From Candidatus Uhrbacteria bacterium GW2011_GWC2_41_11 (GTDB lineage Bacteria; Patescibacteriota; Patescibacteriia; UBA9934; GWF2-40-263): a stretch of 64,000 nt of DNA. The translations under genes and the position numbers were made by a program. The notes below the pieces were generated by a model. It did not search any database. It saw only the letters and a list, made by a program, of their open reading frames with translations, and was not told the DNA's origin. Below, one piece after another: positions 51,057 to 54,770 of this stretch; within the stretch, counting starts at the first letter, position 1; each line of letters begins with the position of its first letter. The stretch covers positions 11,089-75,088 of the forward strand of contig LCAH01000007.1 in NCBI GenBank assembly GCA_000996355.1. Reading direction: 5' to 3'.

Positions 51057-54000
51057 ATGGAATCAGAAAAAATGGAAAAAAGCAATTTTTTTCTTTATAC
51101 TGAAGACAGTATTTTGTATTATATGGGCATATTTGGCAGGGAAAAAGGACCGCTTTCCGAACCGTCTGAGCCGCGAGAATCCGAACCAAAGAAATACGAA
51201 AATCACACAACTGAGCGGAGCGGCGGGCATTCTCATGAACAACACACGGCAGAACCGGTTCTCGAAAAGGATCGCGCGCATTTTGATGCAGAAGAACAGC
51301 ATCTGCGAAATTTGATTGACACATTGCAGGACCGGACGGAAAAATTGCAGGATGTCGAATTGGAAAAGAGAGTAGAATCTGTTCCTGTGCGCAGAACATT
51401 CGTGCAAACCATAGAGACCGTTAAAAAAAAGATTGCGGAATGGTTTGCCGCGCGCAAGGAAAGAGTGTTGGATAAAAAAATTAAAACCGTTTTAAAATTT
51501 TATTCCTTTGCGAAAGACGGAATTCGTCTTGATGCGAAAGAATTAGTCGAGCTTGTTCGTGGACTTTCAGAGACACAGGTGGAAAGACATCCTGATCTTA
51601 TTGAATCCGCAAGAAAACAGTTTGTTGACTCTCTGGAAAGATTAACAAAATATCGTTTTTATTCCCCGTCAAACGACTATGACTTTCAGAGTATTCAACA
51701 TGTCACGGACCTTTTTTATTCGCAGCCAGTTATTTTCGAATCTTTTTTTCAGGATGAGCACGTGCAGACGTTACAGGACAAAATTTTTACTTCCGCTCTT
51801 TACACGGGTCAGTTGCTCGCTTCTGATATAGGAAAGAGAATAAGGATGCGTCCGGAACGCATGAAGGAACTTGCTGCGCAGGCTTTGTGTGATACAGTCA
51901 AAAATTTATCCGTGCGCGATGCGGATCTCGTGTATGATGTGAAAATATTGATCAAGGATTTTCATGTCGATCAGGAAACCGTCGATGCGGTTGCCTTTCA
52001 ATACGTCTTGGACAATCTTACATCCGATTATCCGTATAAATCCGCGGAAGATGTCCAGGAGTTTTTCGGTCTTTCGGAAGAATCCTTTCAAACGCTGATG
52101 CAACATCACAAGGAAACGTTGAAACCTCTCTGTTACAAAGCTGCGGCAAACGCCTTGATACATTCCGGGAATCCGATCCATTCGGTTGGAAAAATTCTCA
52201 CTGCTTTTAAAATTCCGGAAGTCGACATAAACGGATTCAGAGAATTTTTGTCCGCTTGTCCGGAAAAGGTCGAGGAAACGGTTTTAACGCGGCTTACGCG
52301 CGCGGATTTTTCCGAAAAGATGGAATCCTTTTTTACAACGCTTATTCCTGTCCATGAACTCATCCGCGAAGAGAAAGGGCAAGCGGCCGTGCGCAAAGGA
52401 CTCCATCACCTCATCAGTGAACATCCATCATTTCTTCACACGCTTCGCGCCTACATGGAACGATTTGGATTGAATCCCGAGACTCTTCGATCGGATCCGG
52501 AAACATTCCAGAGTGTGAGACACGGAGTCGCCAAGGAACTTGTCGCTGAAACTTTTGTCTGGCCTTCTCGGGAATTTTTTGATTTTTTTGGCATTTCCGA
52601 GGAGCAGTTGCGAATCTACATTGAGATTAGTCGAAAGATCACGGATTCGCCTTCCCAAGAGGTTCAAAAGCTACGTGATGCCCTGATTGTCCAATTGCTC
52701 GATTCGGAACGTCCGGTCGAGGACTACGAAAAGATCGAATCCATTTTTTTAAAAAACAACATTCCGACCGTGGGGAAATGTTACGGCGTTTTTGAGGTTC
52801 TTTATCCACCGAAACGGTTGATCGAGAAAATCGGAACTCACTCAAGTCCCGTGTTGCAACAGGCTGGTTCTCGGAAAAGATACGCGATCTTGTATCAGGA
52901 TCTGCTGAGAATTCATATAGAGTCAGGAAACCGTTCCTTGAAGGAATATGCCGAAGTTTTGCAGGAAGGATCGGATCTCCTTGTCAAATATGAACGCGAC
53001 GGGTTGACCGGGTTAGACACAAAGGAACGTGAACGACTGTGTGTATTTGTTGGAAAATTAGAAACATTGCTTGCGAAGTCCGCGTTGGATACGGCGCCGG
53101 AAGCGTTTCAGGTCGCACGTCTCGCCGATCTGGAAAAACGGATCGTGCACGTACGCAAAGGGCTCAAAGTGCGGGTGGAACAGAGTGTACTTGAGCGTAT
53201 TTCCGAAATGTTCCTGCGTCCGGCCGGTGTCTCAAGCATGGAAGAATTGCTGGAACGTATGCGCTCGACCAGACAGGCGGCGGATGAACGGAATCGAAGA
53301 TCTGTCGCGAACAAAAGAGAAAAACGAAACACAGAGGAACCTATTTTTGACTTGCAGGTCGGAGATTTTCTCAAAGGTGTTGATATCCAGTACATTTCCA
53401 ACATTCTCCAAAACGGCTCGGTGGCAAAGGAATTCCTTGGTGCGAGTTCGGATTCTGACAGCACGCCTCTGGATACGGATGTAAGCATGGTTTCCGCGGA
53501 AGACGCGCAGGGTGGATTCGAGCATGCGGTTTACAAATCATTGGCAAAAGATTATGGAGATTTGTTATTTTGTCTGAGAGACCGCGGACAATACCAACAT
53601 ACGGAATCATCAACACCAGTCGAGAGAGATCGAGATAAATGGGAACTGTTTAAAACTGGTGTCGTTAGTGAATACCATTACGGTATCCGAACCGGATTTC
53701 CCTCGACGCAAATTGATTTCATGATTGTGAAGACTGGATTGAGCGTTGATACAAAAGCGCTTGAGCGTCTGTTTTTTGAAATCGCAAAAAATGGGTTTTA
53801 CATTCCCGTGGTTGATTTCAGTGGAAAAATAATTTTGTCACCAGAAGCGTACGACGGTTACCGCGCTTGTTTTGCTGGGTTGGAATCGTTCGATGGTCCT
53901 CCGCTTGCATTCCAACCGGTCGTGTCGGGAGATCGTTCATATGAAAAGATCATGAAACTTATGGTTTCTGTTGCAGAAGATCGTGAAAGAGTTCAAGAAA

Positions 54001-54770
54001 CAACTGTTGGGATTCATCGTGAATTGGAACAGATCTTGGCTGGATTAGGAGTAAGACTTAGGTCAGAATTCGACACAAGCATTCTTGGTGCGGAGTTATC
54101 TGATATTGGATCAACAGGACGACATACGAATATGCCTGGAGATTTTGATTTTGACTTCAGTTTAAAATTGGACGCGAAGGATTTTTCGCGTGCGCAGGAA
54201 TTGGCTGAAACGATCAAAGGAGCCATGTTGATGAAAACGGATGATTCGCATAGGGAAGAAGAAGGATATTATCAACTTCGGGTAAAGGGAGTGACAAGGT
54301 TAGGTTCTCTTCATTTGAAACAACCGCTGGATATTGATATTGGTTTTTCTCGAAAAGCGGATATGAACGTTTATGGATCCCATGATGCCTTGCGTGACAA
54401 ACTTCACATGATCGAAAAGACATACGGAGAGCAAGCTCGCGACCAAGTGCTTGCGAATATTGTGTTTACCAAACAAATCTTAAAACAGGGAAATGCATAC
54501 AAAAAACAAGAACACGGCGGAATGGGCGGGGTGGGAGTGGAACATTGGATTCTGGCAAATGGAGGAAATATGGAAACAGCTTTTCGTCGTTTTCTTGAAG
54601 CAGCTTATGAAGAGAAAAAACGAATTCCATATGAAAAATTTAGAGAAAAATATCACGTGATGGATGCGGGGATAAATGTAAAATTTATGGTCCACGATGA
54701 TTTTATTCGTGTGCTCAAACCATCTGGGTATGCGGCTATGTTGGATGTGATTGAAAAGTATTTTAAGTAG
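51057..54770 (+). CDS. 1237-aa hypothetical protein with a C-terminal pol-beta-type nucleotidyltransferase-like signature
   Basis: Near the C-terminus, IGSTGRHTNMPGDFDFDF (G[SG], 10 aa, DxD), with a third acidic site LDIDIGF about 55 aa later. The N-terminal 900 aa are unrecognised. Confidence 0.5.
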   Translation: MESEKMEKSNFFLYTEDSILYYMGIFGREKGPLSEPSEPRESEPKKYENHTTERSGGHSHEQHTAEPVLEKDRAHFDAEEQHLRNLIDTLQDRTEKLQDVELEKRVESVPVRRTFVQTIETVKKKIAEWFAARKERVLDKKIKTVLKFYSFAKDGIRLDAKELVELVRGLSETQVERHPDLIESARKQFVDSLERLTKYRFYSPSNDYDFQSIQHVTDLFYSQPVIFESFFQDEHVQTLQDKIFTSALYTGQLLASDIGKRIRMRPERMKELAAQALCDTVKNLSVRDADLVYDVKILIKDFHVDQETVDAVAFQYVLDNLTSDYPYKSAEDVQEFFGLSEESFQTLMQHHKETLKPLCYKAAANALIHSGNPIHSVGKILTAFKIPEVDINGFREFLSACPEKVEETVLTRLTRADFSEKMESFFTTLIPVHELIREEKGQAAVRKGLHHLISEHPSFLHTLRAYMERFGLNPETLRSDPETFQSVRHGVAKELVAETFVWPSREFFDFFGISEEQLRIYIEISRKITDSPSQEVQKLRDALIVQLLDSERPVEDYEKIESIFLKNNIPTVGKCYGVFEVLYPPKRLIEKIGTHSSPVLQQAGSRKRYAILYQDLLRIHIESGNRSLKEYAEVLQEGSDLLVKYERDGLTGLDTKERERLCVFVGKLETLLAKSALDTAPEAFQVARLADLEKRIVHVRKGLKVRVEQSVLERISEMFLRPAGVSSMEELLERMRSTRQAADERNRRSVANKREKRNTEEPIFDLQVGDFLKGVDIQYISNILQNGSVAKEFLGASSDSDSTPLDTDVSMVSAEDAQGGFEHAVYKSLAKDYGDLLFCLRDRGQYQHTESSTPVERDRDKWELFKTGVVSEYHYGIRTGFPSTQIDFMIVKTGLSVDTKALERLFFEIAKNGFYIPVVDFSGKIILSPEAYDGYRACFAGLESFDGPPLAFQPVVSGDRSYEKIMKLMVSVAEDRERVQETTVGIHRELEQILAGLGVRLRSEFDTSILGAELSDIGSTGRHTNMPGDFDFDFSLKLDAKDFSRAQELAETIKGAMLMKTDDSHREEEGYYQLRVKGVTRLGSLHLKQPLDIDIGFSRKADMNVYGSHDALRDKLHMIEKTYGEQARDQVLANIVFTKQILKQGNAYKKQEHGGMGGVGVEHWILANGGNMETAFRRFLEAAYEEKKRIPYEKFREKYHVMDAGINVKFMVHDDFIRVLKPSGYAAMLDVIEKYFK

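Follow-up and report, generated by a model that had tools for sequence, protein, structure and literature searches.

A conserved C-terminal module pairing an ADP-ribosyltransferase-like domain with a predicted nucleotidyltransferase in a family of large proteins from genome-reduced bacteria

We analyzed a stretch of 64,000 nucleotides (hereafter, the window) from contig LCAH01000007.1 of Candidatus Uhrbacteria bacterium GW2011_GWC2_41_11, focusing on one gene that encodes a protein of 1237 amino acids (aa). We found that nearly all relatives of this protein align only to its C-terminal part, and that the conserved unit is a three-domain module of ~730 aa (aa ~505-1237) composed of a helical domain, an ADP-ribosyltransferase (ART)-like domain, and a nucleotidyltransferase (NTase). 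An earlier note, made from the letters of the window alone, had pointed to the open reading frame (ORF) and to two motifs near its end, IGSTGRHTNMPGDFDFDF (aa 1017-1034) and LDIDIGF (aa 1091-1097), as an NTase-like signature and as the only recognizable feature of the protein. The ORF and both motifs are present as described and the NTase assignment was borne out, but the signature is not alone, since ART-like and conserved helical domains were also found within aa ~505-1237. The reading that we favor, with a rough probability of 45%, is that of a cytoplasmic, stand-alone, multi-domain enzyme whose C-terminal ~730 aa would form the catalytic unit and carry out nucleotide transfer at two sites, possibly on RNA ends.

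The whole 1237-aa protein had no match in Pfam, NCBIfam, or PDB sequences, and PADLOC returned nothing significant, with one weak match to DruF (E 0.034, 9.9 bits) that lies outside the catalytic module. In this respect the earlier note, which had called most of the protein unrecognized, was right. The identical protein, called as 1232 aa, occurs on nine groundwater-metagenome contigs, and its sole label is that of a hypothetical protein of Candidatus Uhrbacteria GW2011_GWF2_41_16, a bacterium of the candidate phyla radiation (CPR).

A predicted nucleotidyltransferase at the C-terminus

The Pol-beta superfamily pattern hG[GS]x9-13Dh[DE]h occurs a single time in the 1237-aa protein, within IGSTGRHTNMPGDFDFDF, and is followed by LDIDIGF at a spacing of 56 residues. 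Because the pattern also arises by chance in ~3% of shuffles of the protein, the motif by itself suggests an NTase rather than establishing one. The motif residues G1018, S1019, R1022, T1024, D1031, D1033, and D1094 show no variation among 82 homologs drawn from both CPR bacteria and Bacilli and are at least 95% conserved among 145 representatives. Within the downstream helix and Gly-rich turn (KQILKQGNAYKKQEHGGMGGVGVE), K1139, Y1148, G1158, G1160, and E1162 are likewise invariant in the 82 sequences, and K1143 is kept in 78 of them.

We searched the PDB with Foldseek and obtained 14 matches at E <= 1e-3, every one of them a Pol-beta NTase; the fold that the earlier note expected at the C-terminus is therefore the one predicted there (AlphaFold2 [AF2] model with a predicted local distance difference test score [pLDDT] of 88). 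The best matches were structures of the archaeal class I CCA-adding enzyme of A. fulgidus (AfCCA), with E values of 4e-5 to 1e-3 over ~300 columns (4e-5 to 1e-4 for 1r89, 3ovb, and 4x4o) and the same head (palm) and neck fold. These were followed by mammalian poly(A) polymerase (PAP), Cid1, GLD-2, and TUT7, and then by NF90/NF45, CdnC, cGLR, CdnE, and cGAS. PAP (1f5a), Cid1 (4ud5), GLD-2 (6lbj), and TUT4/7 have the same palm with a PAP/OAS-type helical architecture (E 4e-4 to 3e-3). Eukaryotic PAP, the non-canonical terminal nucleotidyltransferases (TENTs), and the terminal uridylyltransferases (TUTases) are template-independent modifiers of RNA 3' ends. On the strength of the model, the last ~275 aa are predicted to be a template-independent Pol-beta-type NTase of the structural group that comprises class I CCA-adding enzymes, PAP, TUTases, and OAS-cGAS.

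A local hhalign alignment to AfCCA (pairwise E 0.011), used for residue mapping only, equates G1018/S1019 with G46/S47, R1022 with R50, T1024 with T52, the carboxylates D1031/D1033 with E59/D61, and D1094 with D110. Further along, K1139/K1143 map to K152/K156, Y1148 to Y161, the GGxGG turn to GFSG (G169-G172), and E1162 to E176; K152 and Y161 are AfCCA residues that contact the triphosphate. The predicted metal-binding pair is D1031/D1033 and not D1029/D1031, and the DFDF residues begin strand 527-534 of the model of aa 505-1237. The putative residue set for binding nucleoside triphosphate (NTP) and Mg2+ is complete (GS loop, R1022, T1024, D1031, D1033, D1094, K1139, K1143, and Y1148), and judged by this conservation the domain looks active.

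The family nevertheless differs from its closest structural relatives. Its identity to AfCCA is ~15%, the relationship is invisible to HMMER, and AfCCA is archaeal rather than bacterial. The family NTase is without the body and tail of AfCCA, having ~75 aa after E1162 compared with 261 after E176 in the 437-aa AfCCA chain, and, unlike AfCCA, it comes after a long variable N-terminus, a helical domain, and an ART-like domain. Compared with PAP and the TUTases, it lacks the PAP RNA-binding domain, has other accessory domains, and shares no significant sequence similarity with them. The Pfam model NTP_transf_2 (PF01909) did not match the 1237-aa protein and gave sub-threshold matches in five out of 22 and six out of 19 members (best E 0.0014), and three family profiles, one of them of the ART-like domain, returned chance matches only when searched against PDB sequences with HMMER.

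An acidic ADP-ribosyltransferase-like domain

The domain that precedes the NTase (aa 757-961) reached a pLDDT of 90.3 when modeled alone (aa 757-962). In a Foldseek search of the PDB, ranks 1-32 were all ART-fold proteins (Tpt1/KptA, DarT, PARP/tankyrase, ExoA/cholix, and CteC), the common element being the split-sheet fold of the ART superfamily (Tpt1/KptA, DarT, PARP, and exotoxin A/cholix). The top match was to Tpt1/KptA (E 0.024, probability 0.96); none reached E <= 1e-3, and TM-scores were 0.3-0.56. Against BFVD, a database of predicted viral structures, the best match had an E value of 2.9e-4. Most BFVD matches were unnamed or uncharacterized, and those with a functional name were PARP-like, PARP catalytic domain, or DarT proteins, the exceptions being NAT_SF, ASCH, and ankyrin.

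Alignment of the domain profile with hhalign to E. coli KptA or to a profile of 26 KptA sequences gave a probability of ~1% (0.9% with the profile) and served only as a pointer to the alignment of strand beta1, the sole region that these alignments paired. There the family motif hhKG (here FLKGV) stands opposite LYHGT of KptA, with Lys instead of His/Arg in 95% of members. K773 is present in 78 of the 82 sequences, and the exceptions are two with His (LLHGT, in Peribacteria) and two with Arg (VLRGV). Because these exceptions match the His-type and Arg-type canonical ART beta1 motifs, we take them as independent support for the view that position 773 is homologous to the NAD+-contacting residue of ARTs.

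Among other positions, E792, D806, D808, E863, G876, R878, T879, G880, and P917 are invariant in the 82 sequences, and D801 is found in 81 of them. The putative polar constellation of the domain consists of K773 (rarely His or Arg), E792, D801, D806, D808, E863, H874, and R878. The segment SDSTPLDTD sits before and in beta2 of the model, with the loop part at low pLDDT, and places D806-T-D808 where ARTs of the R-S-E type have S-T-S and those of the H-Y-E type have Tyr. In model m36f7129e1673, strands 106-110 and 118-121 contain the segments WELFK and HYGIRTG; E863 would then fall on the fifth strand, where ARTs carry their catalytic Glu.

We describe the domain as ART-like and not as Tpt1 because it is strongly acidic and without the RNA lobe and the Arg/His tetrad. 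It is acidic across the family, with a median isoelectric point (pI) of 4.7, compared with ~5.4 for the NTase domain. An all-helical domain precedes it in place of the N-terminal winged-helix lobe of Tpt1, and the R-H-R-R tetrad is missing. The Pfam models PTS_2-RNA (PF01885), PARP, and DarT had no match to the domain; genuine KptA sequences all match PF01885.

Module architecture and N-terminal extensions

The relatives that align to aa ~509-1237 carry this region always at the C-terminus, in proteins of 1200-3000 aa. Conservation peaks in three blocks (aa ~530-630, ~770-940, and ~1010-1237), and module-only members of 696-793 aa exist in both phyla, one of them on an 805-kb chromosome. The AF2 model of aa 505-1237, built from a 22-sequence alignment, had a pLDDT of 88.2 and a predicted TM-score (pTM) of 0.87. 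These values argue for a fixed packing between the domains, and the helical, ART-like, and NTase domains are predicted to form one rigid body.

The first domain of the module is all-helical in the AF2 model, with pLDDT mostly 81-94 except for the first ~10 residues and a loop at aa ~677-689. Its motifs are SPSQE, F..NN.P..GK, and D..(R).H..SGNRSL, and its near-invariant residues are P553, F564, N567, P570, K574, D615, S623, and N625.

By contrast with the module, the N-terminal ~500 aa are variable, being alignable in only ~11 of the top 150 representatives. We detected no Pfam domain in this extension and no internal repeats by BLAST. No transmembrane segment or signal peptide was predicted in the 1237-aa protein, nor in 146 of 150 members, and the protein is probably cytoplasmic and stand-alone. 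Other members bear unrelated N-terminal extensions. A member from gut Bacilli (P0179) has DUF4116 repeats in this position, and such repeats are also found in a separate gene (L007, 6287-7444) immediately upstream of the gene for another member (P0247), which hints at a local pool of helical-repeat proteins as the source of the extensions. In one further case (P0163; L088, 1416-4007), the gene lies downstream of gatA and joins a complete GatB catalytic domain (E 2.8e-114), in frame, with the last ~75% of the module. This fusion is known from a single 7-kb metagenomic contig and may be real or an artifact of assembly or deletion; if real, it would tie the module to tRNA-dependent chemistry.

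Family size and genomic distribution

A word-indexed search with the single 1237-aa protein found nothing beyond the protein itself. We then counted relatives by exhaustively scanning 1.84 billion cluster representatives (clusters at 50% identity) with HMMER, which yielded 1034 at E < 1e-3, of which 654 had E < 1e-30. All named members are called hypothetical. The family is carried by at least 280 GTDB species, a lower bound as the scan of species genomes used one single peptide pattern. CPR carriers include Uhr-, Zambryski-, Komeili-, Magasanik-, Collier-, Roizman-, and Peribacteria, as well as Paceibacterota, Saccharibacteria, and Moraniibacteriota. Carriers outside the CPR, at ~33% identity, are dozens of metagenome-assembled genomes (MAGs) of uncultured "Bacilli/Tenericutes" from animal gut, with some contigs of 0.66-0.89 Mb. 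A few hits came from MAGs labeled Gammaproteobacteria, Micavibrio, or Muribaculaceae; most of these lie on short contigs, and they may reflect faulty binning.

With one exception, every MAG seen has a single copy of the gene. The exceptional MAG, labeled Micavibrio sp., has two paralogous family genes (L033 and L034), one with Arg at position 773; its short contigs and odd taxonomic label suggest a mis-binned CPR genome.

Members are found in ordinary chromosomal surroundings, some amid genes for ribosomal proteins and translation factors, and the family was not found in phage genomes, viral contigs, or plasmids. Clustering of the neighbors at 79 GTDB loci revealed no neighbor family in more than seven loci, and none of the neighbors in the window recurs, bar a PBP2-like gene in one locus. 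The earlier note had suggested looking for conserved linkage with the acidic paralogs downstream of the gene; these recur in 0 of the 79 loci.

Translin-family genes are unusual in bacteria. One is present in the window (16968-17627, +), another is the immediate neighbor of the family gene in L088 (4079-4657, +), and a third is three genes (~3 kb) upstream of the family gene in L005 (4412-4987, -). We considered adjacency to Translin as a conserved context and rejected it, with two independent loci in total and 0 of the 79 GTDB loci.

Proposed function and alternatives

In the enzyme that we propose, an NTP would donate its nucleoside monophosphate, and the NTase would attach it to a hydroxyl of an acceptor that sits between the domains; judged by the closest structural kin, this acceptor would most likely be an RNA 3' end. 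The ART-like domain may provide a second nucleotide-type site (for NAD+ or an ADP-ribose-like ligand) or an acceptor-binding site, acting on the same substrate, and the variable N-terminal extension would target or regulate the enzyme lineage by lineage. We lean toward a cellular role in RNA or nucleotide metabolism and away from mobile defense or a toxin because the gene is single-copy, sits in an ordinary chromosomal context, and is kept in genome-reduced bacteria.

Several observations weigh against this proposal. HMMER comparisons with the PDB and Pfam gave no link above threshold to any characterized family, and the hhalign results for AfCCA and KptA are not significant as search statistics. 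The tRNA-binding body and tail of CCA-adding enzymes are missing, and the catalytic R-H-R-R tetrad of Tpt1 has no counterpart. Moreover, acidic ART-like (pI ~4.7) and NTase (pI ~5.4) domains are unusual for binding an RNA backbone.

A bolder and rather doubtful version of the proposal is that the protein represents an unrecognized bifunctional class, in which a Lys-type acidic ART-fold domain and a CCA/PAP-type NTase act in sequence on one substrate. An example would be NAD+-dependent processing of an RNA end or of an ADP-ribose-linked intermediate, followed by untemplated nucleotide addition. If true, such a pathway would be peculiar to ultra-small bacteria that depend on a host (CPR and reduced gut Bacilli) and would matter enough to them to be kept in genomes under 1 Mb.

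Since the catalytic domains are acidic and tRNA-binding domains are lacking, modification of a protein or small molecule stays a rival. The enzyme could then be a host-directed effector or toxin in which a protein or cationic small molecule is AMPylated or NMPylated by the NTase and ADP-ribosylated by the ART-like domain, and the N-terminus gives specificity of target or delivery. NTase and ART domains are both common toxin and effector modules. The family occurs mainly in CPR bacteria, of which the cultivated members live as epibionts; its proteins are large with variable N-terminal regions; and the predicted acidic ART-like pocket, with its invariant Asp and Glu residues, would suit a basic acceptor. 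On the other hand, signal peptides and transmembrane segments are absent from the protein, and the 79 loci show no adjoining immunity or secretion gene and no conserved neighbor. A conserved catalytic C-terminus with a variable N-terminus is the reverse of the arrangement in polymorphic toxins, and some members are module-only forms without a trafficking region. The active-site residues are the same in two phyla whose sequences are 33% identical overall, which suggests slow, housekeeping-like evolution, and the top 50 fold matches contain no protein-AMPylating or antibiotic NTases. We consider this alternative unlikely.

Less probable still is a synthase of a cyclic or linear oligonucleotide signal, akin to CD-NTases, OAS, or cGAS, with the upstream domains as sensor. 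An enzyme that generates a nucleotide signal had been among the options in the earlier note, and a similar fold class is suggested by matches to CdnC (6p80), CdnE (6wt9), CdnD, cGLR (8gjw), and cGAS, with E values of 7e-3 to 0.1. Weak sub-threshold matches to Pfam SMODS were seen in two of 19 members, and the model has a long helix ahead of the palm, as do OAS and cGAS. However, members of the CCA/PAP/TUTase group match ~100-fold better than the CD-NTases do, and antiphage signaling systems of the CBASS type need an adjacent effector, of which none is conserved in the 79 loci. The PADLOC result (the weak DruF match only) does not favor such a system, and the gene is monocistronic (see below) and was seen in neither defense islands nor phages and plasmids.

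That the protein is the organism's enzyme for tRNA CCA addition or repair, as a bacterial counterpart of the archaeal class I enzyme, is very improbable, even though the A. fulgidus structures are its best structural matches and all catalytic and triphosphate-binding residues of AfCCA have invariant counterparts. With ~75 residues after E1162 against 261 in AfCCA, the body and tail that measure the tRNA and hold it at the acceptor/T-arm are absent, and the domains are acidic. The 3'-terminal CCA is encoded in five out of five tRNA genes of the window (at 9689, 22551, 27280 [-], 31304, and 46072), so that only repair would be needed, and the ART-like and helical domains and the size of 1200-3000 aa would go unexplained. 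Finally, a GlnE/GlnD-type adenylyl- or uridylyltransferase acting on glutamine synthetase or PII, as the earlier note had also entertained, deserves hardly any credence: It shares only the generic, superfamily-wide hG[GS]...DxD...D motif, no GlnE or GlnD structure is within the top 50 fold matches, the Pfam models for GlnE and GlnD_UR_UTase (PF03710, PF08335), HD, and ACT are silent even at E up to 10, and glnA and glnB are not among the neighbors.

Novelty and implications

We found no description of an ART-NTase fusion or of a CPR class I CCA-like enzyme in the searchable literature, which is absence of evidence only. Each of the two catalytic folds is already known, and what is new is their combination. 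Also new are the Lys-type acidic ART variant, a bacterial class-I-like NTase without body and tail, and the restriction to genome-reduced lineages. A large share of the protein families without an assigned function belongs to CPR/Patescibacteria and small-genome gut Bacilli. Here, an anonymous giant ORF becomes a defined three-domain catalytic module with two predicted active sites that can be mutated, which makes it experimentally tractable; the short module-only members suit expression, and the candidate substrates (NTPs, NAD+, and RNA ends) are inexpensive to assay. If the domains cooperate, they may represent new nucleotide-transfer chemistry or a pathway for RNA ends in organisms in which RNA metabolism has hardly been studied. 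The ART superfamily would then also gain a Lys-type branch, and the class I CCA/PAP-like NTases a bacterial one.

Gene features and surroundings

The coordinates of the gene, its domains, and its motifs are collected in Table 1. The stop codon lies within the coordinates of the ORF. In four other assemblies of this organism, gene callers chose the second Met as the start.

Table 1. Features of the gene and its protein product, in positions of the window
Feature	Position	Strand	Basis or remark
Whole gene	51057..54770	+	1237 aa (ORF list, translation); alternative start 51072, 1232 aa
Variable N-terminal extension, aa 1-504	51057..52568	+	Lineage-specific, dispensable
Conserved all-helical domain, aa 505-756	52569..53324	+	Aligned in 119-148 of 150 representatives
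ART-like alpha/beta domain, acidic, aa 757-961	53325..53939	+	AF2, Foldseek
ART beta1-equivalent motif GDFLKG (K773)	53361..53378	+	hhalign, conservation
Conserved loop and strand SDSTPLDTD (D801, T803, P804, D806, T807, D808)	53454..53480	+	Conservation
Consecutive strands WELFK (E863) and HYGIRTG (H874, G876, R878, T879, G880)	53640..53696	+	Conservation, model
Predicted Pol-beta-type NTase, palm and PAP/OAS-type helical domain, aa 962-1237	53940..54767	+	Foldseek, conservation
GS loop and putative metal-binding DxD, IGSTGRHTNMPGDFDFDF, aa 1017-1034	54105..54158	+	Motif search, conservation, hhalign map
Third carboxylate strand LDIDIGF (D1094), aa 1091-1097	54327..54347	+	Invariant; equivalent to AfCCA D110
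Putative NTP-binding helix and Gly-rich turn KQILKQGNAYKKQEHGGMGGVGVE (K1139, K1143, Y1148, GGxGG, E1162)	54471..54542	+	Conservation, AfCCA map
Bidirectional intrinsic-terminator-like hairpin	54796..54830	.	Between the 1237-aa gene and the convergent acidic ORF

The hairpin downstream of the gene has a near-perfect stem of 15-17 bp with eight GC pairs and T-runs on both strands. Because this predicted bidirectional terminator separates the gene from the convergent acidic ORF, we regard the gene as monocistronic.

The earlier note had placed the gene at the start of a GC-rich block after tRNA-Glu. The GC content is indeed 0.45-0.51 across 48-62 kb of the window, compared with ~0.41 elsewhere, but the tRNA-Glu (46072-46146) is 4.9 kb upstream with four intervening ORFs, and comparable GC-rich stretches are also found at 12-16 and 24-28 kb. 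A genomic island linked to this tRNA was rejected owing to its distance, the GC content that is not unique to the block, and the same context in other assemblies; no integrase was present among the ORFs examined.

Upstream, the divergent neighbor (49797-51014, -) encodes a secreted-looking thioredoxin-fold protein with C-terminal tetratricopeptide repeats, and the start codons of the two genes are only 42 bp apart. Downstream are two very acidic ORFs rich in Trp, Tyr, Asp, and Glu (54850-55575, -, 241 aa; 55931-57166, -, 411 aa), neither of which has a Pfam or PADLOC match. They are partial paralogs that have in common a segment of ~100 aa (RQ..R.E......AQ.AVE..DLVEKFD ... YRG.QWAR; E 7e-7). 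Beyond them lie two genes for otherwise unannotated proteins, one of 392 aa with zinc-ribbon motifs at its C-terminus (57288-58466, -) and one of 355 aa that is rich in Ser/Thr and has a lipoprotein-like N-terminus (LLVGLIGCGNN; 58487-59554, -). The next gene (59710-60840, +) encodes a prokaryotic channel of the glutamate-receptor type, in which the periplasmic binding domain (SBP_bac_3/Lig_chan-Glu_bd) is split by a K+-channel pore (Ion_trans_2).

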